A DNA stretch of 34,597 nucleotides from a virus. Lineage: Duplodnaviria; Caudoviricetes. The notes under the pieces were generated by a model that worked only from the letters and a program-made list of their open reading frames with translations, ran no database searches and had not been told where the DNA came from. The number at the start of each line of letters is the position of its first letter. Position 1 is the stretch's first letter. Shown piece by piece: positions 1,082 to 33,523 of the stretch. Made by a program: the position numbers and the translations under genes. The DNA is taken from positions 1 to 34,597 of the IMG/VR virus record IMGVR_UViG_3300008255_000292. One strand, given 5' to 3'.

Positions 1082-1549
1082 ATGGCTGATCTGGCGCTAG
1101 TGCCCACAAAGAATCGAGGACGCCTCTCGAATGCCGAGATAGCCTCCCGGCGAAAGCAGGTGTTCGACCTGCGGCGGGAGGGGCTGAGCGTCACCGAGAT
1201 CTCCGAACGCCTTGGTTGGCCATATGCGACGGTCTGGCAGAACATTCACTCTGCCATCCGGCAGATGGACGTGACGGCCACCCTCGAGGCTGAGGTTGCG
1301 ATTGACCTTGCACGGCTCGAGGACATCATCCGCATTCACTGGCCGCAGGTGAAGGCACGGGATCTGGATTCGACCTACGTTGTCCTGAAGGCCCTCGAGC
1401 GGAAGGCGAAGCTCCTCGGCCTCGACAGCCCGAAGAAGGTCGACGTGCGAGTCTTAGTCGCTCAGTGGGCCGAGGCCCAGGGGCTCGAGCCAGCCATCGT
1501 TCAGGACATCGTGTCGGGGATGCTTCTCGAGACGCGTGATCCAACGTGA
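1082..1549 (+). CDS. terS: terminase small subunit (N-terminal HTH)
   Basis: HTH (LRREGLSVTEISERLGW..ATVW); helical ERKAKLLGLD segment; directly upstream of and overlapping terL. Confidence 0.8.
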   Translation: MADLALVPTKNRGRLSNAEIASRRKQVFDLRREGLSVTEISERLGWPYATVWQNIHSAIRQMDVTATLEAEVAIDLARLEDIIRIHWPQVKARDLDSTYVVLKALERKAKLLGLDSPKKVDVRVLVAQWAEAQGLEPAIVQDIVSGMLLETRDPT

Positions 1550-15490: not shown

Positions 15491-17053
15491 ATGCCTTCAG
15501 AACTCGGTAACGGCGTCGAGAAGTCCTTCGACGCATCTGTTCTCAAACATACCATCCAGCAAGCGCCCACCGGCCAGGGAGCGTTCTACAACGAAGCTGC
15601 GACGGCGCTTTTCTTCGTGGCCCAAGCCGCTGATGAGATCACGGCTTGGGGTACAGCAGTCAAACTTCGCGACCAGCAGCTACGCGAGTTCATTACGGCG
15701 GAGCCCCTGTTCGCCTCCGCCCTCGGGATCGTCTGTTCCCGCAACGCGGCCTTCTCGTGGACAATTGAGGGACCGCCCCGCGCAACCGCCAGGATGCAGC
15801 GCGTTCTCGCCTCGGCCAACTTCGGGCGCGGTTGGGCAGACCTCATGGCGAAGGTCAGCGTTGATTTGTATACCCAAGATGCAGGTGCATTCGTCGAGGT
15901 GATCCGCGACGGCGATTCGGAGTCCGCTGCGGTTATCGGCCTCGCTCACCTCGACTCTCTGAGATGTTACCACACTGGCCTTCCCGAGACGCCGGTCGTG
16001 TACCTCGACCGCAATGGTGCCTACCACTACCTCAAGTGGTTCCAGGTGCTGACACTTGCTGAAATGCCCGCCACGTACGAGGGCTTGCCAGGTATTCAGT
16101 ATTGTGCTTTGACGCGGATGCTGCGCGCCGTGCGTATCCTCCGGGACGTTTCTATCTATCTGTCCGAAAAGATCGGAGGAAGGAACGCGCGCGCGGTGAC
16201 GCTGGTCAAAGGCGTTACCCCTGCTCAGATTGAGGAGGCCTGGGGGCAGGCGCGCGCGAAGCACGACTCGGCGGGATTCCTCCGGTTCAGCCAACCAATC
16301 ATGATCGGCGCGGTTGACCCGAAGTCGGACCTCGGCTTCGAGACGCTCGAGCTCGCGTCCTTGCCGGACGGGTTCGACCTTGACCTCACGTTCAAGCAGT
16401 ACGTCGCGCAGATTGCGATGGCGTTCACGTCCGACTACCAGGAGTTCGCTCCGTTGCCGGGCGGCAACCTCGGTACGTCCAGCCAGTCCGAGATTCTCCA
16501 CCTCAAGACGCGGGGCAAAGGTCCGGGCCTGTTCATGAAACTTATCGAGCAGGCGATTAACTGGACCGTGTTCTCGGATGACATGGAGTTCAAGTTCGAC
16601 GAGGCGGACCCCGAGGCCGACCTCTCGCTGATCAACGTGTCGAAGCTGCGCGCCGACGAGCGCGCCGTGCGCATCCAGTCAGGGGAACTGACGCCCGAGG
16701 CCGCGCGTCAGATGGCTCACGAGGCTGGAGACCTTTCCACGGAGCTTCTCGAGATGATGAAGGCGCAGGACGTGGTGTCTGGTCTCACGGTTACGGATAC
16801 CAACCCGGCGGATACGGACGAGGTTCTTGACGAGACAACCGCGCCCGATACGCCCGGCGCGGGTGGCGTGACCGCGACGCCATCAGCACCCAACTCCAAC
16901 AAACCCGCAACCTTCGGGGCACCCAACACGAAAGAGAAGGACGCTCCGCTGCCTGTTGGCGACAAGCGGCTGCTCGTCGAGGACGAGGTTCAGGCGGCGA
17001 TCGAGCAGGCTTTCGAGGAGGCGTATGCCCGGCTGACGGGCGGCGTGGCGTGA
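15491..17053 (+). CDS. portal protein
   Basis: About 520 aa; DLYTQDAGAFVEVIRDG..VIGLAHLD and C-terminal GELTPEAAR are portal-type features; position in the head module; start set at ATG 15491, below a TGnTATCGT -10. Confidence 0.85.
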   Translation: MPSELGNGVEKSFDASVLKHTIQQAPTGQGAFYNEAATALFFVAQAADEITAWGTAVKLRDQQLREFITAEPLFASALGIVCSRNAAFSWTIEGPPRATARMQRVLASANFGRGWADLMAKVSVDLYTQDAGAFVEVIRDGDSESAAVIGLAHLDSLRCYHTGLPETPVVYLDRNGAYHYLKWFQVLTLAEMPATYEGLPGIQYCALTRMLRAVRILRDVSIYLSEKIGGRNARAVTLVKGVTPAQIEEAWGQARAKHDSAGFLRFSQPIMIGAVDPKSDLGFETLELASLPDGFDLDLTFKQYVAQIAMAFTSDYQEFAPLPGGNLGTSSQSEILHLKTRGKGPGLFMKLIEQAINWTVFSDDMEFKFDEADPEADLSLINVSKLRADERAVRIQSGELTPEAARQMAHEAGDLSTELLEMMKAQDVVSGLTVTDTNPADTDEVLDETTAPDTPGAGGVTATPSAPNSNKPATFGAPNTKEKDAPLPVGDKRLLVEDEVQAAIEQAFEEAYARLTGGVA

Positions 17054-19317
17054 TGGCATTCGCGTATGGTATCACGGAAAAGCGCACCTGGATCCGCGAC
17101 GCTGAGGGCCAGTTCGCGGCAACGGGTGGGGCTGCGTCGGGTGGCGGCATTAGTTCCGGCAACCAGACGGGTATGACGGATGCCGACCTGAAGGCGTACT
17201 ATCGTCCCGGCAAGGCGGGTGACGTGATTTACCCCGCCCAAGCCGTGTTCCATGTTGACGGCAAGATCACGCGCCCAGCGAAGGTCCTGCGCACCGACGG
17301 CAAGCAGACAGCGGATATCGAGGTCATCCACCGCTCCGGTGCCCGGACGCCGCAGACGGTCCCGTTCTCGTCGATCCTCGTGCCTCGCTCCTCCACTTCC
17401 TCCGCACGGACCTGGTACGTGACGACGGGTACGATGGGTGGGCCGCTGACGGCGAAAGCCCTCGATGAAAAGGTTATTTACGTTCGCGATGCTGAGGGTC
17501 AGTTTGCATCGACGGGCGGAGGTGGAGGAAGCAGTACGCCAATCCCGCCTGCCAAGCGCATGATGGGGCAGGACGTTGAGCGTGCCGATTCGGTCGTCGG
17601 CAAGGATGACATGCAGTACGACCTGTATCGCGTGCAAGGCGGTCAAGGTGGCATGGTTCGTGTGACCGATATTGACTCGGGGGAGCATACCGATATCCGT
17701 AAATACCCCGAGTTTGCGAGGGCACAGGCTGCATATAACGCAGCCATACAGGTGGCGACGAAGGCCAGGACCTACTTCCCTGACGCGCCGGGTACAGACT
17801 ACGCCCGCGACGCTGGCTTCGCCGTGCCCGAGCGCAAACCGCTGGACGTTGAGCTGTTCCTTGCTGCGCTCGAGGCCGAGGTCGAGAAACAGACTTACGT
17901 CCGCGATGCTGAAGGTCAGTTTGCGTCAACAGGTGGAGGCGGAGGCGGAGGTAGTGCAAAAGGCTTCACGGCCAGCGTAGGATCTACGGCGGCTGACAAC
18001 GCACTGGATCGCGAGGAAGCGCGGATGATGGCGTTGAAGAAGGAGCGGGTAGTCATCGTTAACCCGCGTACAGGGGGCGAGGTAGATCGTCGTGAGGGAA
18101 GCGCACACGTCGCTGGATACAATCGCAGCGACGTTAAAGACAATGTTATGCTCCACAACCATCCGAACGAAGGCTCCTTCTCTTCGCTAGATGTTTCTAA
18201 TGCTATTGGCGCGGGAGCGGCAGAAACGCGGATTGTCACTCCAAGCGGACGCGTAGAACGATTGACGTTTTCGCCGTCCGCTCGTCAAAGTCGTGCCCTC
18301 TCGGATTCGGCCTCGGCACAGAATCCCTCGAGCGGCGGCTTCCGTGGATGGGGGCAATGGGCAACGACGCAGGAGGGCGTTACTTATTCATCTGGGCAGC
18401 ATCGCGGCATAACCAAGACGCTGGAAAAGGCCCACGCACACGGCAACGACCGCTCGCCTGAGGTACACGCGGCGCAACAGCGTATTCATGATGCCCTTGC
18501 TCGGGGTGAGATCAAGAAACCAGACGGCTGCTCCCGGTGTGCCACAAAGGGGCCAGTCGAGGCTGCGCACAACAGTTACGGCGAGCGCCTCGACTTCAAG
18601 TGGCTGTGCCCGTCCTGCCACCATGAGGCGGACCACGCAAGCCCAAAGTCCACAAAGGTATACGACTACAGCCTGTACGGATATGCCGAGAAGCATCCAG
18701 GGCATCCCGATCAGAAGGTTCATGGTGGGGCAGGGCGCGGCTCGGCTTCTGCTGCCAACCCTATTTATGCGGCAGCGATAGCGAACGAACCCGCGATCAC
18801 GGCTGACATGAAAGGCTTCGCTTCCGCATCCGGCGGTAATTTGGTTGGGCTCGATAACGCGGTCAAAGGCCGAGGATCATTAGAGCGCAAAATCCACGAC
18901 GACTCCGTTTCCAAGCACATACCTTTGGCGGCCTCTAGCTCCCAAATAAGCGACGCCGTTCGCTACACGGCGGCATTCTCGCCCGGCAAGCTCGCGGCTG
19001 GTGCGAACAGGATGCGAACCGACATGAAAGAGAAGGGGTACACAGAGAAGAAGCTCAAAAACTTCTGGAAAACGCCGCCCTCTGACGGTTCCTATCACGG
19101 TATCAACTCGCAATGGATTCATCCTGGCACGGGCCAAAAGCTAGAGCTTCAGTTCCATACGCCGGAGTCGCTCAGAATAGAAAAACGCAATCATCCTCAC
19201 TATGAACGATTCCGCGCGGTGGGCGCATCGGCAAAGGTCAAGCGCGAAGCACGCGTGGCGATGAAAAAGAACTGGGTCGGGCACACGGTACCGGCTAACA
19301 TCGGATCGGTATCCTGA
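17050..19317 (+). CDS. head-associated multi-effector polyprotein 1 (two unknown modules, JAB/MPN, HNH-like, RelA/SpoT-like synthetase)
   Basis: 3x EKxxxxRDAEGQFAxTGG; JAB E...HNHP...S..D; CxxC..AH..Y....WLCxxCH; KG..SL.RK, D.VRY, Y.GIN, ELQFHT, H..YE..R. Confidence 0.8.
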   Translation: MMAFAYGITEKRTWIRDAEGQFAATGGAASGGGISSGNQTGMTDADLKAYYRPGKAGDVIYPAQAVFHVDGKITRPAKVLRTDGKQTADIEVIHRSGARTPQTVPFSSILVPRSSTSSARTWYVTTGTMGGPLTAKALDEKVIYVRDAEGQFASTGGGGGSSTPIPPAKRMMGQDVERADSVVGKDDMQYDLYRVQGGQGGMVRVTDIDSGEHTDIRKYPEFARAQAAYNAAIQVATKARTYFPDAPGTDYARDAGFAVPERKPLDVELFLAALEAEVEKQTYVRDAEGQFASTGGGGGGGSAKGFTASVGSTAADNALDREEARMMALKKERVVIVNPRTGGEVDRREGSAHVAGYNRSDVKDNVMLHNHPNEGSFSSLDVSNAIGAGAAETRIVTPSGRVERLTFSPSARQSRALSDSASAQNPSSGGFRGWGQWATTQEGVTYSSGQHRGITKTLEKAHAHGNDRSPEVHAAQQRIHDALARGEIKKPDGCSRCATKGPVEAAHNSYGERLDFKWLCPSCHHEADHASPKSTKVYDYSLYGYAEKHPGHPDQKVHGGAGRGSASAANPIYAAAIANEPAITADMKGFASASGGNLVGLDNAVKGRGSLERKIHDDSVSKHIPLAASSSQISDAVRYTAAFSPGKLAAGANRMRTDMKEKGYTEKKLKNFWKTPPSDGSYHGINSQWIHPGTGQKLELQFHTPESLRIEKRNHPHYERFRAVGASAKVKREARVAMKKNWVGHTVPANIGSVS

Positions 19318-19636: not shown

Positions 19637-21706
19637 ATGCCAGCAGTTGCGGATCGACTCGAGGTGCTCACGGCCCGCGCTGGTAAGAAGGCCAAAGCTC
19701 TTGGTACTCCCCTTCGCCTCGAAGCCCTGACTGACGAGGCCCATCCCTACTGGGAATGGTATCGGCGACACCTTGCCGAAACAGCCCGGCCTCTGTTCGT
19801 GACCCTGTTCCTTGCGGGTGCGCGGGCGGGCGTTGACATGCCGATGGTCAAGGCGAAGATTCGCGAGAAGCACCTCGCCGGTCAGCATGATCAACAGCGT
19901 CACGGTCACGGCGGTCCAGACCTTTCCGCAGCCGACCGCGAGGGTGCAGATGACATCAAAGGCTATCTGACCACTGTCTCGGGAATTGCCACCGCTCCCG
20001 CTGGGTACGTCCATTCCTCGGCGCTCATCCTCGAGCACGGCAAGGCATACCCAACCGACGCCGACACGTACGCGGGCAAACGGGGCACACCCAAGCAGTG
20101 CTACGCGAACGCCGGACGGATGGCAACGCGCGACTCCTCCCTGACTTACGTCGAGGGCTACACGACCGTTCACGGCGTTCCCATCGAGCACGCGTGGGTG
20201 GTGAACAAGAAGGGCACGGTCATCGACCCAACGCTCAAGAACGGCGACAACATCAGGGGATACTTCGGCGTCCCGTTCACGACCGAGTACCTGAACAAGA
20301 CGATCGCGCGCAAGGGCACCTGGGGCCTGATTGACGGGATGACGAATCGCGACCTCTTCAAGAAGGACCTGCCGAACGGGGTTGTTCACAAGGCGCTTGA
20401 GGAGAAACACCTGCCTGGTAAGCATGACCAGCATACTCATGGGCGCAAGTCAATCAATTGGGACCAAAACCCTCTGTCGTTTGCCGCCTACCGTGACGCG
20501 CCTAACCTGAGTGCTCAGATGACGGACGTTGCTGGAGCAAACGCCATACGGAAGCAGTTTGCCAAACAAGGACGCCTCAACCCGGACGGGCGTACGGTGT
20601 CCGTGTACCACGTGACTGACAGCGACAACGTTGAATCAATCACATCTCATGGGCTCATTCCTAGCGCAAAAGTGGCACCCGGACAGCCGTTCGCGGCTCG
20701 GCACTCGAGCTACGCTACGTACTTCCACGGCAGCGAAGAGGGCGCGCTTGCGGACCTTGAGCGCGCGAATGAGGATATGCCGGGTGCGTTTGCCCTTATC
20801 AAGGCGAATATTCCGATTACGCCGAAGGCCCTGTTGCGGATCATCCCCGACGAGGACCTCGGCATGAAGATAACTGAGGGTCTGTCAGCGTTGCTCGAGG
20901 GGGATGCCGTTGCCATCATCGGCGGTGTCCCGGCGGCAAGCGTGTCTCGTTACATACCCAAGGGAAAGACACTCGAGGAAAAGCATCTACCTGGTAAGCA
21001 CGATCAACAGTCGCATGGTCGCGGGGGTGGCGGGCGTTCGTTCACTCCAGGGCTCCAAGACCGTACGCTGGAGATACAGGAGGCGATTGTGCCCGAGTTC
21101 AAGCCGTGGGCTGATTCCCTGAATCGCGACGAGCAGAATATGGTCATCGGGTACACGGAGGCTTCCTCTCCATTGAATGAATACCTACGCAACGGTAAGG
21201 AGCCCTCAGCAGCCGACGCGAAGGAGATCCTGGATTACGGCTACACCGGGCACCTTCCCACGGACGCAGCGAACCTCGACTCAGCCCTGCGCAAGGCGTC
21301 CATGCCCGAAACCACAATCACGTATCGGGGCATACGCGCCGGGCGCGACTATAGCGAAGGTGACACGTTCGTCGACAAGGGCTTTGCGTCTACGTCGCTG
21401 AACCTCCACGTTGCATCGATCTTCGCCGACCAGAAATCGGTCGTTCACAACGAAGAGATCACAACGGCGTTTATGGTTGCACGGGTCAAGGTTCCGAAGG
21501 GAGCACACGCGGCAGCAGTCAATTCTGTCTACGGCGTACGACGGAACGAGGCCGAGATTTTGCTCTCTCGCAACAGCCGCTACCGGGTGACGAAGATCCA
21601 CCCACCGGAAACCATCACGATCAAACGCCCTGCGTCTGATGCGCGGTTCAACCTTCCCGACGTGGTATTGAATGTCCTCCACGTTGATATGGACCTCCTG
21701 CCATGA
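19637..21706 (+). CDS. head-associated multi-effector polyprotein 2 (papain/transglutaminase-like protease, two ADP-ribosyltransferase domains)
   Basis: 3x EKHL.G.HDQ..HG; CYANA...HAW...IDPT triad; YHVT...N..SI...GL; YRG...F.STS...EAE (R-S-E, VIP2/Alt-like). Confidence 0.82.
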   Translation: MPAVADRLEVLTARAGKKAKALGTPLRLEALTDEAHPYWEWYRRHLAETARPLFVTLFLAGARAGVDMPMVKAKIREKHLAGQHDQQRHGHGGPDLSAADREGADDIKGYLTTVSGIATAPAGYVHSSALILEHGKAYPTDADTYAGKRGTPKQCYANAGRMATRDSSLTYVEGYTTVHGVPIEHAWVVNKKGTVIDPTLKNGDNIRGYFGVPFTTEYLNKTIARKGTWGLIDGMTNRDLFKKDLPNGVVHKALEEKHLPGKHDQHTHGRKSINWDQNPLSFAAYRDAPNLSAQMTDVAGANAIRKQFAKQGRLNPDGRTVSVYHVTDSDNVESITSHGLIPSAKVAPGQPFAARHSSYATYFHGSEEGALADLERANEDMPGAFALIKANIPITPKALLRIIPDEDLGMKITEGLSALLEGDAVAIIGGVPAASVSRYIPKGKTLEEKHLPGKHDQQSHGRGGGGRSFTPGLQDRTLEIQEAIVPEFKPWADSLNRDEQNMVIGYTEASSPLNEYLRNGKEPSAADAKEILDYGYTGHLPTDAANLDSALRKASMPETTITYRGIRAGRDYSEGDTFVDKGFASTSLNLHVASIFADQKSVVHNEEITTAFMVARVKVPKGAHAAAVNSVYGVRRNEAEILLSRNSRYRVTKIHPPETITIKRPASDARFNLPDVVLNVLHVDMDLLP

Positions 21707-23292
21707 CGACGTCCGACTTGCGCCGTGACCACTTCGCCTGGGCACCGGATGACATCGAGTTCAAGGTCGAGAAGGCCGAGAGCCCCATCAGCGGTGAGGA
21801 CCTGACAACGGCAGCCCGCCAAGCCATCGACGGTTTCATGCCGACGTGGGTTGACGCCATTGGGAAGACGACTTACGAAGAAGTGAAGCGGATCGTCGCA
21901 GACGCGCGCCTGACCGGAGCAACGATTGACCAAACCTGGGCCAAGATGGGACGGCTGTTCAGCCCGGATCGGGCGAAGTTGATCGCGGTGACCGAGTGCC
22001 TACCGCCGGAAACGCTTGTTGACAGAGCTGTGATACGGGCAGCTTTTCGACGGCGGTACGAGGGTCCAATGGTCGAGGTCGTCACCAAGGGCGGTCGCAG
22101 GTTCTCCGCAACCCCTAATCACCCGATGCTGACAAGGCGCGGTTGGGTTGCTGCGGGCGAGGTTGAGGAAGGTGATGATGTCGTCTGTGATGCTCGGCAA
22201 CAGCGTTCGGGTGGAACGAGCGACCCAGATGTACAAGCACCACCAACCGCGATTGCTGAGGTATTCGATTCGATCGCGGCAGTAGGTCTCGCCGAACGGG
22301 TGCGTAGCACTAACCCAGATTTCCACGGCGACGGGTGCAACAGCCAGGTCGATGTTCTTTCGCCCAGCAGGCCATTGCTTATCGGGGACTTCGCCCCGCT
22401 CTACAAGCCAACCGTAGACCTGTTCCTCGCCCCATCCGATGTGGTTCGGGCGGCTGTTTGCGATCGCTGCGGCATGCTTCTCAGTATCACGAAGCAGGAG
22501 TGCTTCTGCGGGAGTACGTGGAGTGATCCCACAGGACAGCAACCGGCTGTCGACCAGTGCGCGGCTAACGTTCAGAGAGTCCGAGATGAAGGTGACGGCT
22601 TCACCAGCATTGTACCGACGGAGGATTTCATCCGTGCTGATGTCGTGTCTGAACCGGGGCTCGCGCTCGCCTGTTACGAGAAGACGAGCAGCACTCCCAC
22701 TTCGGATGACACCCTCACGCCGAAGTGTGTCGGCAACCCAGTCAAGTCCAAATCCGGTTTCGGCGGCGACCTGGGGAGCGCTCATGCCGCTTTGGTAGAG
22801 AGCGGTTATGCGAGCAATATCGGCGTTGCGTCGAGGGTGCAGCAGTTGTGCGGTCTCGCTCTTGCTTCTGAGTGCAACCTTGTTGCACCGCAAGGTGTAT
22901 ATGACCCAACTCTCGCAGGCACCCAGATGAGCAGCGATTCGCTTGGCTGTCCACCCGCCCAGGTAGAGCTTGACAGCGTTATCTCGGTCAGCCTGCGAAC
23001 GTACTCGGGGCATGTTTACAACCTCTCGACACCTTATGGTTACTTCACCATAGCCGGGGGCATCTTTACGGGCAACACCACACGGCTCTTCGGGATGGGC
23101 GCGCAAGCCGTCTACGAGAAGATGGAGATCGAGGAGTGGTCCTGGCAGACGGTCAAAGACCCGTGGGTGTGTACCACCTGCGAGGGCCGCAACGGGCGCA
23201 AGTATCCGATGGAGCATCAATTCGAGCCCGCCCACCCCCGCTGTAGATGCTTTGCACGCCCTGTTGCCATCCCCGACGGAGAATCAGTATGA
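21703..23292 (+). CDS. MuF/SPP1 gp7-like head morphogenesis protein, intein-interrupted (about 169 aa after splicing)
   Basis: RAKLIAVTE|TTR...W.W.TVKD..VC..C...NG..Y......PAHPRCRC signature. Confidence 0.88.
   Translation: MTTSDLRRDHFAWAPDDIEFKVEKAESPISGEDLTTAARQAIDGFMPTWVDAIGKTTYEEVKRIVADARLTGATIDQTWAKMGRLFSPDRAKLIAVTECLPPETLVDRAVIRAAFRRRYEGPMVEVVTKGGRRFSATPNHPMLTRRGWVAAGEVEEGDDVVCDARQQRSGGTSDPDVQAPPTAIAEVFDSIAAVGLAERVRSTNPDFHGDGCNSQVDVLSPSRPLLIGDFAPLYKPTVDLFLAPSDVVRAAVCDRCGMLLSITKQECFCGSTWSDPTGQQPAVDQCAANVQRVRDEGDGFTSIVPTEDFIRADVVSEPGLALACYEKTSSTPTSDDTLTPKCVGNPVKSKSGFGGDLGSAHAALVESGYASNIGVASRVQQLCGLALASECNLVAPQGVYDPTLAGTQMSSDSLGCPPAQVELDSVISVSLRTYSGHVYNLSTPYGYFTIAGGIFTGNTTRLFGMGAQAVYEKMEIEEWSWQTVKDPWVCTTCEGRNGRKYPMEHQFEPAHPRCRCFARPVAIPDGESV
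22000..23013 (-). CDS. antisense-encoded endonuclease: three HTH repeats + Vsr/DUF559-like nuclease (337 aa)
   Basis: ATG 23013 with GAGAGG RBS; three LY..G.....IA...G-type HTH repeats; E...L...G....Q...G...IDLA...VAVEI....H...R..YL...GW..L.IW. Confidence 0.8.
   Translation of the reverse strand: MPRVRSQADRDNAVKLYLGGWTAKRIAAHLGACESWVIYTLRCNKVALRSKSETAQLLHPRRNADIARITALYQSGMSAPQVAAETGFGLDWVADTLRREGVIRSGSAARLLVTGEREPRFRHDISTDEILRRYNAGEAVTFISDSLNVSRALVDSRLLSCGITPRTPAEALLLRDTEKHAAAIANSRPNHIGWGEEQVYGWLVERGEVPDKQWPAGRKNIDLAVAPVAVEIWVSATHPFGETYCRDRIEYLSNRGWWCLYIWVARSTRTLLPSITDDIITFLNLARSNPTAPCQHRVIRGCGEPATALGDDLDHWTLVPPSKSCPYHSSVNKRFRR
23047..23075 (-). promoter_or_regulatory. antisense promoter inside the intein C-terminal splicing block
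   Basis: Minus strand TTGCCC(23075-23070)-N17-TATGGT(23052-23047), 33 nt above ATG 23013. Confidence 0.55.
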
Positions 23293-23492
23293 CAGCACCT
23301 GCTCAGTCGATCGTCTGCCCCCGGTGTACGCGCGCCGTCCTTCGCGATCACGACGAGTTCTTTTGTCTCGTCCACGGGACGGTCAGCGTTCCGCATCGTG
23401 CGTGGGACGTTGCCGCCGGGACGAACCGAACTCAGATGGCGTCTCCCGTCTGGCTTCCGCACGAGCGCAAGGCGTGGGAACAGGACGTTTGA
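23289..23492 (+). CDS. small zinc-ribbon protein
   Basis: ATGA overlap; CPRC...C.VHG. Confidence 0.65.
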   Translation: MTAPAQSIVCPRCTRAVLRDHDEFFCLVHGTVSVPHRAWDVAAGTNRTQMASPVWLPHERKAWEQDV

Positions 23493-23537
23493 CTTGACGG
23501 TTACTTACCGTTGCCGTATTGTCAACGGTGAAGGAGG
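23490..23537 (+). promoter_or_regulatory. TGACTTGAC promoter + RBS, copy 10
   Basis: TTGACG(23494)-N17-TATTGT(23517); GAAGGAGG at 23530. Confidence 0.8.
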
Positions 23538-23546
23538 ATCCAAGAT

Positions 23547-23747
23547 ATGGATCCGAAATACCCGGAGATCAAGGTCAAGTTGAGCAACACGGACGGTAAC
23601 GCGTTCAGCATCATGGGCAAGGTCAGCGTGGCTCTGCACGCGGCAGGTGTGCCCAAGGAAGAGCGGGACACGTTCTTTGCTGAGGCCACGAAAGGCGATT
23701 ACGACAACGTGCTGTCCACCGCAATGCGCTGGGTTGATGTGTTTTGA
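23547..23747 (+). CDS. conserved small phage protein (DGNAF.I.G...GDYD motif)
   Basis: L...DGNAFSIMGKV..AL..AG.......F..EA..GDYD..L. Confidence 0.8.
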   Translation: MDPKYPEIKVKLSNTDGNAFSIMGKVSVALHAAGVPKEERDTFFAEATKGDYDNVLSTAMRWVDVF

Positions 23748-23989
23748 AAGCTGTTGCTGCTGACAGTCCCATCCTCGCCGACACACCGCACGCCCGGTTG
23801 CTCGTCGAGTACCTCAAGACGGGCGGCTTCATGGAGTGGCAGACAGAGCACATCATTGAGGCCATCATCGTCCTGCGGAAATCAACGAACCAAGAGCAAC
23901 GGCTCGAGGCGATGTACAAGATCGTTCGGGCGGCTAACGATCTGGCCAAGGTGTACACTACGGCCATCACGCGACTCGAGGCGAGCTGA
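23744..23989 (+). CDS. hypothetical helical protein
   Basis: Coupled at both ends. Confidence 0.6.
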   Translation: MKAVAADSPILADTPHARLLVEYLKTGGFMEWQTEHIIEAIIVLRKSTNQEQRLEAMYKIVRAANDLAKVYTTAITRLEAS

Positions 23990-24384
23990 TGGCTCCCCGA
24001 CTGACTGCCATCGTACCGCGCACGTCGCCGCTCCCCCGCAATCCGCAGAAGGGCATCGACAAGTCGCTCGCCGTGTTCGCGGCCAAAGCGCAGGAGCTCC
24101 TTCAGGAGTACCCCGCGTGGCGTCCGTGGAAGTACCCGCCCAAGACTGGCCCTCATGCGGGCGGACGGCGCACGGGCGACTACGGGCGTGGCTGGGGGCC
24201 GTCGGCTTCTGTCACCAAGACGTCATCCTCGATCACGATCACAAACAAGGTCAGGTACGCCGAGTACGTCGGCGGCAAAGGCCAGGCCCGCGCGCTCGGG
24301 GCTCGAGGGTGGACAACAATCACTGAAGCGGGCAAGAAGGCAGCGGCGGCTGTCAAAAACGCCAACATCAAGTGGGCTGACTGA
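23989..24384 (+). CDS. HK97 gp10-like neck/tail-completion protein
   Basis: Basic; RRTG.YGRGW...ITITNKVRYAEYV motif. Confidence 0.65.
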   Translation: MAPRLTAIVPRTSPLPRNPQKGIDKSLAVFAAKAQELLQEYPAWRPWKYPPKTGPHAGGRRTGDYGRGWGPSASVTKTSSSITITNKVRYAEYVGGKGQARALGARGWTTITEAGKKAAAAVKNANIKWAD

Positions 24385-26168: not shown

Positions 26169-28343
26169 GTGACTGACTACGCCGAGAAAGCAGCAAACCA
26201 CACGGGCGTAATGGTCGCCCTCTATCCGAGCCCGGACGACGCGAAGCACCTCGCGCTCGATCCGGGCTCTTTGTTTCCCGAAATAGAACCGGCGGAACAA
26301 CTGCACGTCACCCTCGGGTACTATGGCAAAGCGGACGAGCTGTCCCCCGGTGACATAGATACGCTGCGCGCAGCGTGCAAAGTGACGACTGAGAATGTCA
26401 GCCCTCCGATGGTCGCAGTCGGGGGTGACACGCGGTTCTCATCCCCTCCGGGCGAACCCGATCCCTACGTCCTCCAGATGGACTCCCCAGTGCTGCATCG
26501 CATCCACGAGATTCTCTGTAGCTATGGCGGGCCATCGCCACGGCAGGATCACGGCTACATGCCTCACATGACCCTGGCCTATTTGCCCAAAGACATGCCG
26601 CTCACGATCAAGTCGCGCGAGCGAGAGACCATCACCTTCGACGGATTGACCCTTGTGGTTGCTGACGTTCGTACTGAGTTCCCGTTCGCTTCACGTGAGG
26701 AAACAACCGCGCCGGGTCCGATGGCTCCTGAAGTGGCAGTCATGCGCACCAAACTTGACGGGGCTGCGGAAGTTGCCGATCGTAACAGTGTTCCCGACCG
26801 AGCAGTCCCACGCACGGAAGAGGACATGGAAGATCTCCACGAGAAGGCTGTCTGGGCGACGGCGGTTGTAAACGACCTGCCTGACTCCGCTTTCCTGTTC
26901 ATTCAGGACGGCGGTACGAAGGATCAGGACGGGAAAACAACGCCTCGATCCAACCGCCATTTTCCGGTCCGAGATGCCGACGGCAAGGTCGACCTGCCCC
27001 ATCTGCGGAATGCGCTTGCACGTATCCCGCAGTCAACCGCCCCTGGCGTAGACGTCGAAGCTCTGCAGAAGCGCGCCCGCGCGTTGCTGGAGAAGGAGAC
27101 GCAAACGCAGAAAACGGGTAAGCGGATGGCTGGCGGCATGCTGAGCACGCTGTCAAATGCCATTTCGTCTCTGACCGGGCTTCTGTCGTGGGCCAAGTAC
27201 GCGGACGAGGAAGGGAAAGAGAATGACGAAGAGGACACGATGAAGGACGCCGCCGATACCGTCGGCACCTCGTTCAACGTGTACAAAGCGTCGGACGGCT
27301 CTACTCGTTGGCTATCCTATTCGTCTAACGGGTTCAAGGACCGGGAAGGCGAGATCGTTTCGACGAAAGCTCTTGAGGACGCGGTTGCACTCGCGGACGT
27401 TACCGAAGACAAGGGACCGCTACGGCTGTTCCACGTCAAAGGTGCGGACGTTGGCCGCTGTGACTTCCAGGCAGTCGAGGGCCGGTTCCTCGTCGAGTCC
27501 GGTACATTCGACGACACTCCGATGGCACAGAAGGCGAAGGAATACTTCCAACATCCGGAAGAGCCGCTCGGAGTCAGCATTGGGTTCGTTTACCCCGAAT
27601 CCCAGTTCGACGGTGGCGTGTACAACCGGATTCGCATAATCGAGCGATCCGTCTGTCCGCTTGCCGCCGCCGCGAATCCATGGACGTCGTTCCAGACGTC
27701 GAAAGGAACACAAATGGACGAGGCGAAGAAGGCGTGGCTGAGCAAGATGTTCGGCGACGACCTTGCGACTCATCTGGTCTCTAGCGCTGCGGGTGCAACA
27801 AAAGAGCTTGAGGGCTCTGTTGCATTCAAGGCAACCGAGGCCGATCTCGAGATCGAGAAGGGTCTCATCGAGGTCAAAGCTGTCATTGACAAGATGCCAG
27901 ATGGCCCGATGAAGAACGCGCTGAACGCAGCGTGCGACTCAACAGGTACGAAAGAACTCGAAGAGAAGACCGACGACGTCGTGATGGAACAGGACGCACC
28001 CGCCTCGGCGGACGTGCCCGCGCCCGTCATGAGCGGAGAGGTACTCGCCGAGACCCTGATTGCCGCTCTTCAGCCCTTCACCGAGAACGTCGAGAAGACG
28101 CTCGAGAAGGTAGCTGAGGATTTCAATGCCCTTGCGGAGCGGATGGCCGCTCTTGAGGTGTCAGACGACGAACGCATGGCCGCGAAAGCTGCACCACGCG
28201 GATCGGGCGTTTTCCGGGCCACTGAGTCCAGTGGCAACGTGCTCGACGGGGCGAAGGCGAAGGAGCTGCTCGGCGTGACTGACCAGCCCGTCAACCACGT
28301 CGCCCCGTACATCCAAGACCTCCTGAAAGGCGTCGCCCGATGA
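26169..28343 (+). CDS. multidomain prohead protease/scaffold with N-terminal 2H phosphoesterase
   Basis: HVTL/HMTL 2H motifs; LPDSAF...R.FP..D.....HLRNALAR domain; protease-like D.EGEIVS...L.FH...VG...GVSIGF...E.S; acidic coiled-coil tail; immediately upstream of the capsid gene. Confidence 0.82.
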   Translation: MTDYAEKAANHTGVMVALYPSPDDAKHLALDPGSLFPEIEPAEQLHVTLGYYGKADELSPGDIDTLRAACKVTTENVSPPMVAVGGDTRFSSPPGEPDPYVLQMDSPVLHRIHEILCSYGGPSPRQDHGYMPHMTLAYLPKDMPLTIKSRERETITFDGLTLVVADVRTEFPFASREETTAPGPMAPEVAVMRTKLDGAAEVADRNSVPDRAVPRTEEDMEDLHEKAVWATAVVNDLPDSAFLFIQDGGTKDQDGKTTPRSNRHFPVRDADGKVDLPHLRNALARIPQSTAPGVDVEALQKRARALLEKETQTQKTGKRMAGGMLSTLSNAISSLTGLLSWAKYADEEGKENDEEDTMKDAADTVGTSFNVYKASDGSTRWLSYSSNGFKDREGEIVSTKALEDAVALADVTEDKGPLRLFHVKGADVGRCDFQAVEGRFLVESGTFDDTPMAQKAKEYFQHPEEPLGVSIGFVYPESQFDGGVYNRIRIIERSVCPLAAAANPWTSFQTSKGTQMDEAKKAWLSKMFGDDLATHLVSSAAGATKELEGSVAFKATEADLEIEKGLIEVKAVIDKMPDGPMKNALNAACDSTGTKELEEKTDDVVMEQDAPASADVPAPVMSGEVLAETLIAALQPFTENVEKTLEKVAEDFNALAERMAALEVSDDERMAAKAAPRGSGVFRATESSGNVLDGAKAKELLGVTDQPVNHVAPYIQDLLKGVAR

Positions 28344-29794
28344 CCGACATTCTCCAGCAACTTGCCGAGGCGCTCATGCCTGTCATGGAGAGCCAGAAGG
28401 CGCGGCGATACGGTATCGCGTACAAACACGATACCGCCAGTGCTACTCCCGGTGCGGTGTATTCGCACGGTCCGGGCGGTATGCTCACGTTCCCCGGCGT
28501 CGATCCCGCTGTCTTCAGTGCAACGATGGGGAACACCAGCATCCTCGGTGAGCTCCCAGCTTCGCCGAGCCTGTACACGAACCCGACGTACCTGACCATC
28601 ACTGGTGTCAGGGACATTACCGGGGCCGAGAAGGATGGCGTGTGCGACAACGCACCGACCGCAGGTTTGATGAAGTCGTGCATGGCCACGAGCGTCTTCG
28701 GGCGCTACGAGCGTGCTACCCCGGTCATCGAACTGAACCGGCTTGGGGCACGCGTTGACCGCGCCGATCCCATCGACCTCCGTCTCATCGGCTCGCCGCT
28801 GGCAACCGCTGGTCCGTTCGCGGGGCCGAATGCCGATGTCAACGGCGCACCTGGCGACCTGCTGACCAACGAAGTCAGCCGGAAGTTCTGGGAGCGCAAC
28901 GTCTCCATGTACCGCCTTCTGTCCGGTCAGATATGGACTGGCAACCCGACCAACAACTCGGCTGGCGGCGGTTACAAGGAGATGACCGGCCTCGCCCAAC
29001 TGGTCAATACCGGGTATGCCGACGCCGAGACCGGCGTTGTTTGCCCGGCGGTTGACTCGTACGTGCGCTCCTTCGCCTACGGAAACGTCGTTGACGACGC
29101 GACAAACCTTGTCGCGGCTCTCACCGACATGTTCTGGCAGGTGAAGAACCGCGCCGATCGCTCAGGCGTCCAGCCCGTGCGCTGGGCGTGGGCAATGCGC
29201 TCGCAGATGTTCTACGAGATCACCTCCGTGTGGCCTTGCACGTACTTGTCCTACAGGTGCGCACCGGGCACGAACATGGAGGGCCAGATCGACGCAGCAG
29301 ATGCCGTCCGGTTCCGCGACGAAATGCGGGCTGGTAAGTACCTGATGCTCGACGGCATCCGGGTAGACGTCATCCTCGACGACAATATCCCGGAGACCTC
29401 GAACACGGACAACGCGAACGTCACCTCCGGGTGCTTCGCGACCGACATCTACCTCCTGCCGTTCTCGGTGGTTGGCGGGCAGTCGGTCCTGTTCCTTGAG
29501 TACTTCCAGTACCAGAACCCGAGCATCCAAGAGGCCCTCGGGAACATGATCCTGGGCCGTATCGAAGGTGCATTCTTGAGCTGGCCTCGCCAGACCAATC
29601 AATGTATCGAATGGCAGACGAAGATCGAGCCCCGGCTCGTCCTGCGTACGCCATGGCTCGCTGCACGCCTCCAGAACGTCCAGTACTGCCCGATCCAGCA
29701 CCAGCGGGATCAGAACCCGACCGATCCGTACTTCGTGAACGGCGGCGGAAGTTCTCGCTCCGGGCCAAGCTACTACTCGATATGGCAATCCTAG
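28340..29794 (+). CDS. major capsid protein
   Basis: 484 aa after protease/scaffold; IWTGNP...EMTGL..L and IRVDVILDDNIP...DIYLL fit an HK97-type fold; followed by a strong terminator. Confidence 0.8.
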   Translation: MTDILQQLAEALMPVMESQKARRYGIAYKHDTASATPGAVYSHGPGGMLTFPGVDPAVFSATMGNTSILGELPASPSLYTNPTYLTITGVRDITGAEKDGVCDNAPTAGLMKSCMATSVFGRYERATPVIELNRLGARVDRADPIDLRLIGSPLATAGPFAGPNADVNGAPGDLLTNEVSRKFWERNVSMYRLLSGQIWTGNPTNNSAGGGYKEMTGLAQLVNTGYADAETGVVCPAVDSYVRSFAYGNVVDDATNLVAALTDMFWQVKNRADRSGVQPVRWAWAMRSQMFYEITSVWPCTYLSYRCAPGTNMEGQIDAADAVRFRDEMRAGKYLMLDGIRVDVILDDNIPETSNTDNANVTSGCFATDIYLLPFSVVGGQSVLFLEYFQYQNPSIQEALGNMILGRIEGAFLSWPRQTNQCIEWQTKIEPRLVLRTPWLAARLQNVQYCPIQHQRDQNPTDPYFVNGGGSSRSGPSYYSIWQS

Positions 29795-29819: not shown

Positions 29820-29852
29820 CGAAAGGCCTCCGGCAACGGGGGCCTTTTCGTT
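29820..29852 (+). terminator. intrinsic terminator after the capsid gene
   Basis: AAAGGCCTCCG-GCAA-CGGGGGCCTTTT; a second hairpin AATCCTAG-TCCG-CTAGGATT overlaps the stop. Confidence 0.75.
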
Positions 29853-29870
29853 GCCTCACGCCGTTGCACT

Positions 29871-29903
29871 TGACTTGACGATCTTGTGCGTTGACACTAT
29901 CCA
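29871..29903 (+). promoter_or_regulatory. TGACTTGAC motif, copy 12, heading the glycan operon
   Basis: Exact motif at 29871; -10 uncertain (TATCCA at 17-nt spacing). Confidence 0.55.
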
Positions 29904-29919
29904 GAACGGAGAGGTGCAA

Positions 29920-30894
29920 ATGGCGTCACTCAGCGCGCGGCAGAATATCCTTCTTACAGGTGGGGCGGGGTTCTTGGGGCGAGGAATTCTCCGCTACCTT
30001 GAAAACTCCAAGTCACCCGCCAACGTCACCATTTACTCACGAGATGAGTTGAAGCATTACAAGGTCAAGCAGCGGTTTCCACACGTGCGCACCGTCCTCG
30101 GTGACGTGCGCGACCTTGACCGTCTGACAGCAGTCATGGCGGGTCACGACCTTGTACTTCACGCGGCTGCGCTGAAACACATCCCGGAAGCCGAGCGTGA
30201 CGTAGCTGAGGCGATTGCCGTCAACGTCATCGGTTCGCAGAACGTCGCCTACGCCGCCCTGCGCACAGGCGTTAAGGACGTTGTCGGCATCTCCACCGAC
30301 AAGACGTGTTCGCCCAGAAACTCATATGGTGCGACTAAGATGCTGATGGAGCGCCTGTTCCAAGAGGCGGGGCGGCTGTCAGACACGCGCTTCACCTGCG
30401 TCCGTTATGGGAACGTCGTCTCGTCTACCGGGTCCGTGGTTCCCCTGTTCCGTGAACAGATTCGGCGTGATGGCGAGGTCACTATCACGAGTCGGGCAAT
30501 GACTCGGTTCTGGATCAGCATCGACGACGCTGTTGCCTTGATTGACAAGGCGGCTACCGATACCTCACGCCGAGGTTACACCTACGTTGCCCGGTGTGCA
30601 GGGATGAGCATCGTCAACGTCGCCCAAGCCGTCTGGCAGCTCGAGGGGCGCACCGGGCCGGTCAAGTATCGAATCATTGGCACACGACCCGGCGAGAAGC
30701 TGCACGAGGTTTTGGTGGACGCCTACGAAGCGCCCTACGCCATGGAGGATGGGCCATACGTCCTGATTCCACCAGCTATGGGACTGGCGGGCGAGGGGAG
30801 TTCCGGCGTGATGCCGTACGAGTCCTCGCTCCCGGTACGCAACCTCGAGCCAGACGAGTTCGCGGCGCTTGTTCGCGATGCTGACTCCGTATGA
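29920..30894 (+). CDS. UDP-GlcNAc 4,6-dehydratase-like SDR (PseB/CapD family)
   Basis: TGGAGFLG, SRDELK, HAAALKH.P, STDK, YGATK, RYGNV..S.GSV, RPGEKLHE; GGAGAGG RBS. Confidence 0.9.
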   Translation: MASLSARQNILLTGGAGFLGRGILRYLENSKSPANVTIYSRDELKHYKVKQRFPHVRTVLGDVRDLDRLTAVMAGHDLVLHAAALKHIPEAERDVAEAIAVNVIGSQNVAYAALRTGVKDVVGISTDKTCSPRNSYGATKMLMERLFQEAGRLSDTRFTCVRYGNVVSSTGSVVPLFREQIRRDGEVTITSRAMTRFWISIDDAVALIDKAATDTSRRGYTYVARCAGMSIVNVAQAVWQLEGRTGPVKYRIIGTRPGEKLHEVLVDAYEAPYAMEDGPYVLIPPAMGLAGEGSSGVMPYESSLPVRNLEPDEFAALVRDADSV

Positions 30895-31577
30895 GCCGTC
30901 TGGCCATCGTCCTGTTGACTTATACGGATGACACGCACGGCCCTCGTGCTGAGTATGCTCACCGGACGTTGCGCTCGGCGCTCGACAACGTTGTCACATC
31001 CTGCGATATTTCGGTTCACATCGCTGACGACGGCTCGCCAGAAGAGCACCGTCAGGCGTTGATACACCTTGCTGGAGGATATGCACACGTCCGTGGAATC
31101 TCGGTCACTAACGCGCAACGTGGGGGCTACGGCAGGTCATACAATCTCGCAACTCAAACCGTTCACAGGCACGTCGACTATGTACTCCCGCTCGAGGATG
31201 ACTGGGTTCTCGAAGCTCCGCTAAATATTGATCCATACCTTGCTGCGATGTCCGCGCCGAACGGTCCAGGTTGCATTCGTCTCGGATACATCGGTATGAC
31301 GCAAGAGCTACGCGGGTTGCTCGTCCCGTTCGCAGGCAATATGTACCTCATGTTCGATCCCGACAGCCCCGAACCACACGTCTTCGCCGGGCATCCGCGT
31401 CTCGAGACGGTGGCGTGGGAGCGCCGGGTAGGTCCGTGGCCGGAGGGGGTATCGGCGGGCACGACCGAGTTCCTCGTCGCGCACAAACGCGAAGCGCGCG
31501 AGCGCGTAGCATGGCCCATGAATCGTGGGCCGTTTGCGCACGTCGGCACAGTCCAAGCAAGAACGGATCAACAATGA
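30891..31577 (+). CDS. GT2 glycosyltransferase
   Basis: IADDGS, G...SYN, LEDDW, HVG. Confidence 0.85.
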   Translation: MSRLAIVLLTYTDDTHGPRAEYAHRTLRSALDNVVTSCDISVHIADDGSPEEHRQALIHLAGGYAHVRGISVTNAQRGGYGRSYNLATQTVHRHVDYVLPLEDDWVLEAPLNIDPYLAAMSAPNGPGCIRLGYIGMTQELRGLLVPFAGNMYLMFDPDSPEPHVFAGHPRLETVAWERRVGPWPEGVSAGTTEFLVAHKREARERVAWPMNRGPFAHVGTVQARTDQQ

Positions 31578-32365
31578 GGGCTGCTTGGGTATTCGGAGTC
31601 ACTGGTATGTTGGGGAAGCGGGTGTGCGCGCAGGTGGAGGCACGTGGTATCCCCGTCGTGGGGTTCGGTCACAGCCGCGATATCGCAAACGGTACGCACG
31701 TTGTTGATGCGTTGGCCCAAGCGCAACCGAAAGACGTCGTGATCAACTGCGCCGGGCTCATTCCCCTACGTGGCAGTCCCGCGATAGACGAGATTGCGAC
31801 GAATGCCCTCGGTCCGCACGTTATCGGGGCAGTATGCAGAGCTAAGAATCTGCGGATGGTGCAGGTGTCCACCGACTGCGTATTCAACGGAAACAAGTCG
31901 GGCGTCAAAGGACGGCTCAAAACTCCCGATGCCGTTGACCTCTACGGGCGCACAAAGGCGATTGGCGAGGTTGGAGATCTCATCATTCGTACGTCGTTCG
32001 TCGGACCGGAGCACGGTCTATGGCAAGAGGTGTTCGCTGCAACCGGGCCACTGTATGGATACACGGACTGGCTATGGTCTGGGTCTACGGTATGGGATGT
32101 GGCTGCGAGTGTTGTCGATGTCGCGTTGTCGAACAAGCGGGGCATTGTACATCTCGCGACCAAGGAACCTATCTCCAAGTTCGCCGTCGTTTCTATACTC
32201 AACCGGATGGCGGATACCCGTCCGCCGGTCAAGGTAGTATCGGTGGGTGGCGATCAGACTGGTTGGAACGACCGTTCTATGAAACCGAATGTCGTGCTGA
32301 GACCGTTTGAGGAGGCAATGCTTGGTTGGTATCAACGTGACCGTAGCGATCCCTGTTGGACCTGA
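31574..32365 (+). CDS. RmlD-like NDP-sugar reductase
   Basis: GVTGMLG, VINCAG, STDCVF.G, YGRTK..GE, IRTS; start moved from 31271. Confidence 0.85.
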   Translation: MRAAWVFGVTGMLGKRVCAQVEARGIPVVGFGHSRDIANGTHVVDALAQAQPKDVVINCAGLIPLRGSPAIDEIATNALGPHVIGAVCRAKNLRMVQVSTDCVFNGNKSGVKGRLKTPDAVDLYGRTKAIGEVGDLIIRTSFVGPEHGLWQEVFAATGPLYGYTDWLWSGSTVWDVAASVVDVALSNKRGIVHLATKEPISKFAVVSILNRMADTRPPVKVVSVGGDQTGWNDRSMKPNVVLRPFEEAMLGWYQRDRSDPCWT

Positions 32366-32993
32366 AAAACGCCACGCTGCCTATCTGGATGAGGCGCTGG
32401 AAAGTGTCTATCGGCAGACCGTTCAGCCATTTCTTGTCATAGTCGACGACATGCACGGTCTACCGCAGGGCTACGGCGGCGCTCGCGTATGGCACGCTCC
32501 GTGGCGTCTGGGTGTTCCGGCTGCGTTCAACGCTGGCGTCGCGCTCGCGCCTAGCGAGTTCGTTCTGATGATGGGAGCGGACGACACGCTGGAACCGGAC
32601 TGTATTGAGCGTGTTGTGGGAGCGATCGAGCGTGTCGGTGAAGGGGCGTGCAAACGTGGAATGCTATATTTGCCGTTGCGCTACATGGACACGAGCGAGG
32701 AGCAGTCGCTAGCCTGCAACGCCGCTGTTGTCAGTAAGACTCTCTGGCGTAACACGGGTGGGTTCGCACCGGAAACCGCCGTCGGTGCCTGCGATACGAT
32801 GTTCGTTACGTTACTGATGGCACATCCGGAAGCCGGAGAGATTTATCCGGTGGGAGGGAAGCCACTGTACAACTATCGTCGCCATGCCGAAACAGATACA
32901 GCCAGTCGAGGTGCCTGGCAAGGGCTAATTTTTACTGCTCGCGACTTGCTCGCTCGAGAATGGAAGCAGCCAAACTGGGGAAGATACGCGTGA
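32307..32993 (+). CDS. GT2 glycosyltransferase
   Basis: VTVAIP, L.SV..QT, IVDD, A.NAGV, GADD, Y.YRRH; exact start uncertain. Confidence 0.82.
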   Translation: MRRQCLVGINVTVAIPVGPEKRHAAYLDEALESVYRQTVQPFLVIVDDMHGLPQGYGGARVWHAPWRLGVPAAFNAGVALAPSEFVLMMGADDTLEPDCIERVVGAIERVGEGACKRGMLYLPLRYMDTSEEQSLACNAAVVSKTLWRNTGGFAPETAVGACDTMFVTLLMAHPEAGEIYPVGGKPLYNYRRHAETDTASRGAWQGLIFTARDLLAREWKQPNWGRYA

Positions 32994-33523
32994 CTTGCGC
33001 TGCGCATAACCTTGCCAGTACGCGGATGTTGTTGACGCAGGACGACGTTGACCTTATTCGTCGCACCGTTGCCCGCTTCCCGCGCGCGAAGCCACTCGTT
33101 GTCGTTGACCTCGGTGCTGGTTCCGGTACGACTGCCGCTGCTGTTTTTGCCGAGCGCCCGGACGCACAAGTGACAACGTATGACGTCTACGAAGTGAACG
33201 TTGGCTGGGCACGGTTGTTCATTCACAACGCCTTCCCGCTGGCCGATTGGGTTGGGTATGTCATGGACTCCGTTGAGGCAGCGTCGATGTGGCAGCAGAA
33301 ATATGCCGACCTCGTCCTGATCGATACGTCACACGAGTACAGGCATACGGCGATGGAGCTCGCTGAATGGCACAACCGTGTGAAGCCTAGTGGATACGTC
33401 TGGTGCCACGACTACGAAGGTGACTATCCCGGTGTTCGGCAAGCTGTAAATGAAGCTGTCCTCGCCGGTTCGTTTGTGATGGTGGAGCAACGCGGGCTTG
33501 GCTGCGTGTTGAGGAAAGCATGA
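32990..33523 (+). CDS. class I SAM-dependent methyltransferase (Methyltransf_24-like)
   Basis: VDLGAGSG, DLVLIDTSHEY, HDY...PGV..AV. Confidence 0.85.
   Translation: MTCAAHNLASTRMLLTQDDVDLIRRTVARFPRAKPLVVVDLGAGSGTTAAAVFAERPDAQVTTYDVYEVNVGWARLFIHNAFPLADWVGYVMDSVEAASMWQQKYADLVLIDTSHEYRHTAMELAEWHNRVKPSGYVWCHDYEGDYPGVRQAVNEAVLAGSFVMVEQRGLGCVLRKA

Follow-up and report, generated by a model that had tools for sequence, protein, structure and literature searches.

A phage MuF-like head protein intein with a predicted Vsr-like homing endonuclease encoded on its opposite strand

The 34,597-nucleotide stretch of phage DNA analysed here (the window, that is, the whole of IMG/VR record IMGVR_UViG_3300008255_000292, Caudoviricetes; a linear virus record of 34.6 kb with an estimated completeness of 38%) carries in its gene for a MuF-like minor head protein an intein whose DNA also encodes, on the opposite strand and in codon register, a predicted Vsr-like homing endonuclease (Table 1). 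At the level of sequence this dual-coding layout is confirmed as real and conserved among relatives. We consider it likely, with a probability of roughly 0.8, that the element is an active class 1 intein: the precursor would splice, the antisense nuclease, made from its own leftward unit, would bind the muF junction and cut intein-free alleles, and the insert would be copied by repair. An earlier note on this DNA presented the arrangement as a distinct intein architecture. It is not an undescribed one: anti-sense VSR-like endonucleases in full inteins of actinobacteriophages were reported by Gosselin, Arsenault and Gogarten (bioRxiv 10.1101/2025.01.02.630785). Judged by its predicted parts, the window copy is one more example of an architecture already described.

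Table 1. Positions of the intein, its host gene and the predicted elements of the antisense gene in the window.
Feature	Position	Strand	Basis or remark
MuF-like (SPP1 gp7 / Mu F) minor head protein precursor, 529 aa	21703..23292	+	ORF list, PF04233, TIGR01641, PHROG head-protein families
Class 1 intein, 360 aa, inserted at IAVTE|T	21997..23076	+	Motifs, intein models, structure model, Foldseek
Block B TPNH	22111..22122	+	Complement encodes V-I-R-G, late in the nuclease domain; both strands constrained
Antisense ORF, 337 aa, predicted homing endonuclease	22000..23013	-	Codon register, Pfam, homologues, structure comparison
Three helix-turn-helix repeats, predicted DNA-binding part	22513..23007	-	Residues ~3-50, 56-106, 121-167
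Vsr / DUF559 / I-Bth0305I-like nuclease domain (predicted), residues ~190-310	22084..22446	-	VIA, conservation, profile
Start codon ATG, complement of block-F His codon CAT	23011..23013	-	113 representatives
Shine-Dalgarno-like GAGAGGTT, complement of block-F Asn, Leu and Ser codons	23020..23027	-	Sequence
Candidate sigma-70-like promoter TTGCCC-N17-TATGGT, inside blocks F-G	23047..23075	-	Sequence; suggestive in the window copy
Nuclease stop TAG, complement of intein codon 2 (Leu, CTA)	22000..22002	-	Sequence, relatives

The host open reading frame (ORF) matches Phage_Mu_F (PF04233, E 1e-4) and TIGR01641 (E 4e-6). The intein is inserted in frame, the ORF stays open across it, and the layout is 98 amino acids (aa) of N-extein, 360 aa of intein and 71 aa of C-extein. 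An assembly artefact is ruled out, since over 21808-24000 the probable source run has no alternative letter, and the 3' splice junction is spanned by a second, independent run. No intein-skipping joint was found in the four runs kept as contigs, but three of these are shallow and patchy, so that the result is uninformative on empty alleles. No RNA run was listed as containing this stretch.

The plus strand reads through all 360 intein codons without a stop. Its sequence has the features expected of a class 1 intein, namely an N-terminal nucleophile (Cys1, in CLPPET), a TxxH block B (TPNH, codons 39-42), a C-terminal Asn within the terminal Gly-Asn and a Thr at the +1 position, and block F reads GHVYNL, so that the splicing blocks reported as intact in the earlier note are indeed found. 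The intein matches TIGR01445 above the curated cut-off (E 5e-6) and PF14890 below it (E 3e-7). An AlphaFold model of the precursor, built from a 32-sequence alignment, shows the splicing ends as confident beta strands with a predicted local distance difference test score (pLDDT) of ~80-95 and leaves precursor residues 270-416 as an unstructured middle at pLDDT <50; Foldseek with this model returned inteins as the top matches (best E 9e-4), which is consistent with a HINT fold. An in-frame LAGLIDADG or HNH endonuclease is rejected, as had been supposed, by the lack of any match to these families within the MuF intein at E<=0.1. The terminase large subunit gene (1546-4335, +) holds an ordinary intein with an in-frame LAGLIDADG domain (E 3e-18), and both intein types are therefore found in one phage.

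Translation of the minus strand from 23013 to 22000 bore out the proposed ORF, which encodes 337 aa before its stop and shares its codon boundaries exactly with the intein. Its product was predicted to consist of three helix-turn-helix (HTH) repeats and a Vsr-like nuclease, a description that stands for the first two repeats, which match Pfam HTH_23 and HTH_7 (E 6e-8 and 8e-8), and for the nuclease fold, while the third repeat is suggested by a weak PHROG match (E 5e-5) and the helices of the structure model. Comparison of the HTH part with VIA gave matches to the GcrA DNA-binding domain and Tc3 transposase. For the nuclease domain, the same comparison gave Vsr (1cw0; Z 9.3, root-mean-square deviation 3.1, 111 residues aligned), I-Bth0305I (3r3p; Z 9.2, deviation 3.1, 90 aligned) and NGO0050 (3hrl; Z 8.6), which are the sole chains at Z>=8 among 48,161 compared. 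A profile search by sequence matched the domain to 3hrl (E 0.027) and did not retrieve 3r3p. Four proteins called as genes are homologues of the antisense protein (E 9e-76 to 2e-42). Within the domain, E196, Q213, E231 and R248 are invariant in all 45 site-mates and D222 in 44 of them, and every family-invariant nuclease residue is intact in the window copy. The EDxHD label, used in the earlier note for Vsr-like homing endonucleases of phage introns, fits the window nuclease in its fold and its conserved Glu and Asp; the His and the last Asp are not conserved, and the window residues H238 and D246, which lie near the corresponding places, belong to columns conserved in neither case across the family. 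The protein is probably a Vsr-type homing nuclease in its working, and should not be filed as EDxHD.

Could the minus-strand ORF be a shadow frame of GC-rich coding DNA with a chance resemblance to HTH proteins? In-register antisense frames are stop-poor in this window, with 59 stops across the 6,223 codons that 14 other genes provide, and one of the other genes has an antisense stretch open for 332 codons; the length of 337 codons is therefore no proof by itself. Evidence of a different kind comes from the relatives. A search with tblastn, using the antisense protein, gave 100 phage records at E<=1e-3, and in 19 regions taken from these matches the hit lies opposite an annotated gene, nearly always one for head morphogenesis, the exception being Acinetobacter phage P1068. 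A twentieth region, fetched through an intein match, has the same layout. The antisense gene is unannotated in 19 of the 20 fetched regions, and the only annotated one is free-standing. Viral contigs yielded no relative when searched with this one protein as the query. Among Salmonella phages, 63 records show a match to the antisense protein at E<=0.1, and the six Jerseyvirus-like enteric phage regions that were fetched (L009, L013, L015-L017, L019) carry an intact, unannotated antisense ORF.

To avoid circularity, the intein search used an alignment of sense precursors as the query. Among the 243 sequences scanned, 154 had full intein bounds by motif, of which 125 are unique and 108 of these came from the sense search; the 89 without full bounds comprise truncated contigs, weak unrelated matches (many of them Mucilaginibacter loci), motif misses (L005, L012, L018) and the intein-free L014. 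The boundary is misplaced by a few codons in L008, L181 and L211, and the hosts of L172 and L181, classed as 'other', look like MuF. Both frames stay open in these homologous inteins, as the earlier note had proposed to check: the sense frame in all 125 unique inteins, and the antisense frame, between blocks B and F, in 105 of the 108 sense-found ones, while the four off-register frames usually contain several stops each. Counted over 113 representatives, which include inteins of AT-rich phages, the codons TTA, CTA and TCA, whose complements are stops, occur 4 times in 28,235 overlap codons versus 544 times in 42,692 extein codons, against an expectation of about 360 in the overlap. This depletion, together with the codon-position entropy pattern described below, rejects the shadow frame, and the Pfam HTH matches at E<1e-7, the Vsr fold and the homologues called as genes speak against it as well; we give that explanation hardly any credence.

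A control is provided by the free-standing relative in P1068, which has 13 stops in the opposite in-register frame, and the open sense frame therefore depends on the intein context. That relative (L014, locus positions 830-1723, +) is convergent on an intein-free muF and abuts its 3' end, an arrangement that fits an origin of the antisense genes from free-standing nucleases targeting muF.

Which of the two strands is under selection? Across 45 same-site inteins, nucleotide entropy over codons 67-320 is higher at sense codon position 1 than at position 3 (in the nuclease core, 1.25 versus 1.02 bits), which bears out the suggestion that selection in the middle acts on the minus frame. The ends of the intein are reversed in this respect, with 0.95 at position 1 versus 1.27 over codons 1-66 and 0.64 versus 1.53 over codons 340-360. 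Amino-acid entropy over codons 67-320 is likewise lower on the antisense strand, again with reversal in codons 1-66 and 340-360. Across the family, purifying selection thus preserves the antisense protein over the middle of the element and the intein sequence towards its two ends. The two constraints meet in places: a conserved 'FHGD' in the sense reading is the complement of the VAVE strand of the nuclease, and in block B of 108 relatives Thr is encoded by ACC in 90 and Asn by AAT in 88, compared with 39% and 29% in the exteins. By this choice of codons, Gly and Ile are kept in the R-V-I-R-G motif of the nuclease.

Through their choice among synonymous codons, the splicing blocks also spell the start, Shine-Dalgarno sequence and stop of the antisense gene. 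A start codon (ATG in 86, GTG in 19) stands opposite the block-F His codon in 105 of the 113 representatives, corresponding to the use of CAT in 86 and CAC in 19 where the exteins have CAT 269 and CAC 529 times. The ribosome-binding site proposed earlier, GAGAGG at 23027-23022, lies within the intein as claimed, and it is supported by the family: a five-base Shine-Dalgarno motif is present in 69% of 112 relatives versus 31% (maximum 43%) in 300 synonymous recodings, and the block-F Leu is CTC or CTT in 97 of the 112. At the other end, the TAG opposite CTA agrees with the earlier assignment of the stop to intein codon 2. The Leu at this codon is CTA or TTA in 61 of the 75 relatives that have it, versus 344 of 3,470 extein Leu codons, and the nuclease stop lies here in 43 of 55 TE-site inteins (those with an insertion of the IAVTE|T type).

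The candidate promoter, also said to lie inside the intein, is present there in the sequence; it is supported at the family level and suggestive in the window copy. With scoring matrices built from consensus frequencies, the best -10 score has a family mean of 5.9 versus 3.4 +/- 0.13 bits in recodings. Ile at the -10 position is ATA in 20 of 36 cases versus 11% in exteins. The relatives L104 and L105 share the promoter register with a better box, TTGCCC-N17-TATAAT, and several such relatives form one clade.

The place of insertion sets this intein apart from the MuF inteins of cultured phages, which lie just before the C-terminal C-R/K-C (or CRS) motif at an HPN|CRC site, about 60 residues beyond IAVTE|T. 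Sites of the IAVTE|T type are the commonest among the best 120 of 393 protein homologues, the 'TE-site' label being assigned by motif and including RVE, RIE and RLE variants that were not checked singly. In a quick tree of 105 nuclease domains, 52 TE-site nucleases fall on one side of a branch with an SH-like approximate likelihood-ratio test (SH-aLRT) support of 91, a branch not starred in that tree. The nuclease lineage tracks the insertion site, as expected for site-specific homing. Most site-mates measure some 305 aa, about 55 aa less than the window copy, and a minority some 360 aa, which would fit the gain of one HTH unit in the window copy, where three are present.

The same intein family interrupts uracil-DNA glycosylase genes at five loci (L126, L143, L146, L161, L173), a dCMP deaminase gene (L008, whose record calls the product a head protein), a GH25 hydrolase gene (L139, L168) and genes of unassigned proteins (L130, L138, L166). 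Occurrence at several sites and in several host genes is as expected of a mobile element.

How might such an element work? The 529-aa precursor would splice through Cys1, the block-B Thr and His, the terminal Asn and Thr+1 to give a 169-aa MuF protein, while the intein middle would be carried as a mostly unfolded segment whose one requirement is to remain free of stops. The nuclease would be made from its own leftward transcript within the intein, its HTH repeats may recognise muF DNA close to the TE|T junction, and the cut that it presumably makes in an intein-free muF allele would be repaired from an intein-bearing copy during co-infection. Homing by cutting and repair copying is the established model for homing endonucleases. 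The earlier note further proposed that nuclease expression is uncoupled from the late host gene and that antisense RNA regulates or opposes this gene, both of which may apply. For the window copy, we infer splicing, expression, cleavage and homing from the established biology of inteins and homing endonucleases.

A number of observations weigh against this reading. Taken alone, the window copy has 0 antisense stops where 2.7 are expected, and the probability of meeting no stop in 337 codons is about 0.04. An ATG or GTG is missing from the usual place in 8 of 113 representatives, and the antisense frame is interrupted by stops in 3 of 108 relatives; these three (L027, L126, L154, with 1-2 stops each) probably carry decaying endonuclease genes. 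The promoter of the window copy scores 8/12, which 6% of synonymous recodings equal, and a promoter scan did not list TTGCCC-N17-TATGGT. The penultimate intein residue is Gly instead of His, a state common to 52 of 113 representatives and tolerated in some inteins. Foldseek with the whole antisense model gave nothing at E<=0.001 (3r3p at E 0.065, 1vsr at E 0.18), nor did phmmer with the antisense protein find anything at E<=1 among PDB sequences. A His stands near the EDxHD place in 34 of 106 family members, and with this residue so rarely kept any assignment of the catalytic mechanism is tentative.

Some of these points bear on another history, in which the intein splices and the antisense gene was formerly a working homing endonuclease, the window copy being now immobile, through decay or for want of an empty target, with its frame kept by recent inheritance. 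The antisense stops in three relatives would fit this course, as would the -10 box of the window copy, weaker than in several relatives, and the vertical patterns given for some VSR-type inteins in the preprint (10.1101/2025.01.02.630785). We regard it as unlikely, given that the invariant nuclease residues, the start, the Shine-Dalgarno sequence and the stop are all intact in the window copy, and that its end branch of 0.55 is typical of the tree (median 0.49), which means that this copy has diverged substantially without gaining a stop.

Alternatively, the antisense protein might be selected and expressed mainly as a DNA-binding regulator or as a competition nuclease, cutting the muF alleles of rival phages or acting through antisense RNA that damps the late head genes. 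Three HTH repeats, a Vsr-like active site lacking a conserved His and a leftward promoter inside a late operon, which would be expected to yield antisense RNA, could all serve such a function. The correspondence between nuclease lineage and insertion site and the presence of the family in unrelated host genes speak for homing instead, and the two roles are compatible rather than exclusive, so that we find a mainly regulatory or competitive function distinctly improbable.

Like the inteins described in the preprint, the window intein is continuous, with an unstructured middle and an opposite-strand nuclease composed of a helical N-terminal part and a Vsr domain; the Vsr domain there matches 1CW0 (Z 10.6, residues 144-267) and 3R3P (HHpred), and the host types given there for non-canonical inteins include minor capsid proteins (IPR006528). 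The MuF inteins of Gordonia phages Fosterous, Angelicage, Vivi2 and Malisha carry antisense ORFs homologous to that of the window (E to 5e-24), and differ in lying just before the C-terminal C-R/K-C motif rather than at IAVTE|T. Second ORFs are typically placed outside the splicing domain in the preprint's description, whereas the window ORF runs through blocks A-B to codon 2. Because of that placement, and because 'promoter', 'start codon' and 'ribosom' are absent from the main text, an ORF that overlaps blocks A-B and has its expression signals embedded in the intein appears to go beyond the preprint, whose supplements may treat the signals or the TE site. The uracil-DNA glycosylase, dCMP deaminase and GH25 hosts are outside the four hosts named in its main text. 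This preprint was the sole description found in the literature on anti-sense VSR homing endonucleases in inteins.

Among other systems, I-Bth0305I, as described by Taylor et al. 2011 (PMC3239194), is encoded by a group I intron, has N-terminal DNA-binding repeats with NUMOD motifs, and is assigned the residues E170, D196, His213 and Asp222. The window nuclease resembles it in combining N-terminal DNA-binding repeats with a Vsr-like catalytic fold. E196 and D222 lie at the same distance from each other, 26 residues, as E170 and D196, a correspondence by spacing only, and His213 and Asp222, unlike these, have no conserved counterpart in the window nuclease family. The Vsr-like nuclease genes reported by Dassa et al. 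2009 (PMC2677866) lie between split-intein halves in phage genes, with all three regions on the same strand, in contrast to the continuous window intein with its antisense, overlapping nuclease. The anti-sense LAGLIDADG inteins cited in 10.1101/2025.01.02.630785 (Synechocystis DnaX, Chloroflexus SpoVR-like, actinophage minor capsid) share the opposite-strand endonuclease within a continuous intein and differ in the nuclease family.

The genes around muF include several modular proteins. Directly upstream, 19637-21706 (+) encodes 689 aa with a C-terminal ADP-ribosyltransferase-like domain (PF03496, E 6e-21) and three EKHLxGxHDQxxHG copies between modules, and looks like a polyvalent or MuF-associated enzyme cassette. 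Another modular protein, of 755 aa (17050-19317, +), contains the motif 'RDAEGQFA' three times; one segment resembles endonucleases (phrog_2340, E 3e-9), and the C-terminal domain matches a head-morphogenesis PHROG as well as a portion of the XopAD family model. Downstream, 26169-28343 (+) encodes 724 aa with an N-terminal 2H phosphoesterase (2'-5' RNA ligase, E 5e-7; weakly, Acb1 anti-CBASS, directed against the cyclic oligonucleotide-based antiphage signalling system, E 0.005) and directly precedes the probable major capsid gene (28340-29794, no family match); it may combine an anti-defence enzyme with a head-maturation protein in one chain. Beyond the head genes, 29851-34596 (+) holds a cluster of sugar epimerase/dehydratase and glycosyltransferase genes.

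The data from relatives allow a broader proposal, to which we give somewhat less than even odds. One widespread 'two-way' intein family may fuse splicing and homing at the DNA level, its splicing blocks spelling the promoter, ribosome-binding site, start, stop and last strands of the nuclease. The nuclease would then not be cleanly removable, its expression by host RNA polymerase would come early and would not depend on the late head gene, and the family would have been repeatedly retargeted, to two MuF sites, uracil-DNA glycosylase, dCMP deaminase and GH25 hydrolase, by change of the HTH array.

In the window intein each strand of a segment of about 1 kb encodes a protein of its own, and the second of the two is missed by annotation pipelines. 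The value of the case lies in the family data, which add a second MuF site, hosts beyond actinophages, and signals placed in the synonymous codons of splicing motifs. The predicted nuclease is a modular HTH and Vsr-like protein, the insertion site gives its predicted target, and the Jerseyvirus-like enteric phages with an intact antisense ORF offer culturable models. The family may therefore serve as a test system for the maintenance of overlapping genes and for the way in which free-standing nucleases become part of inteins.

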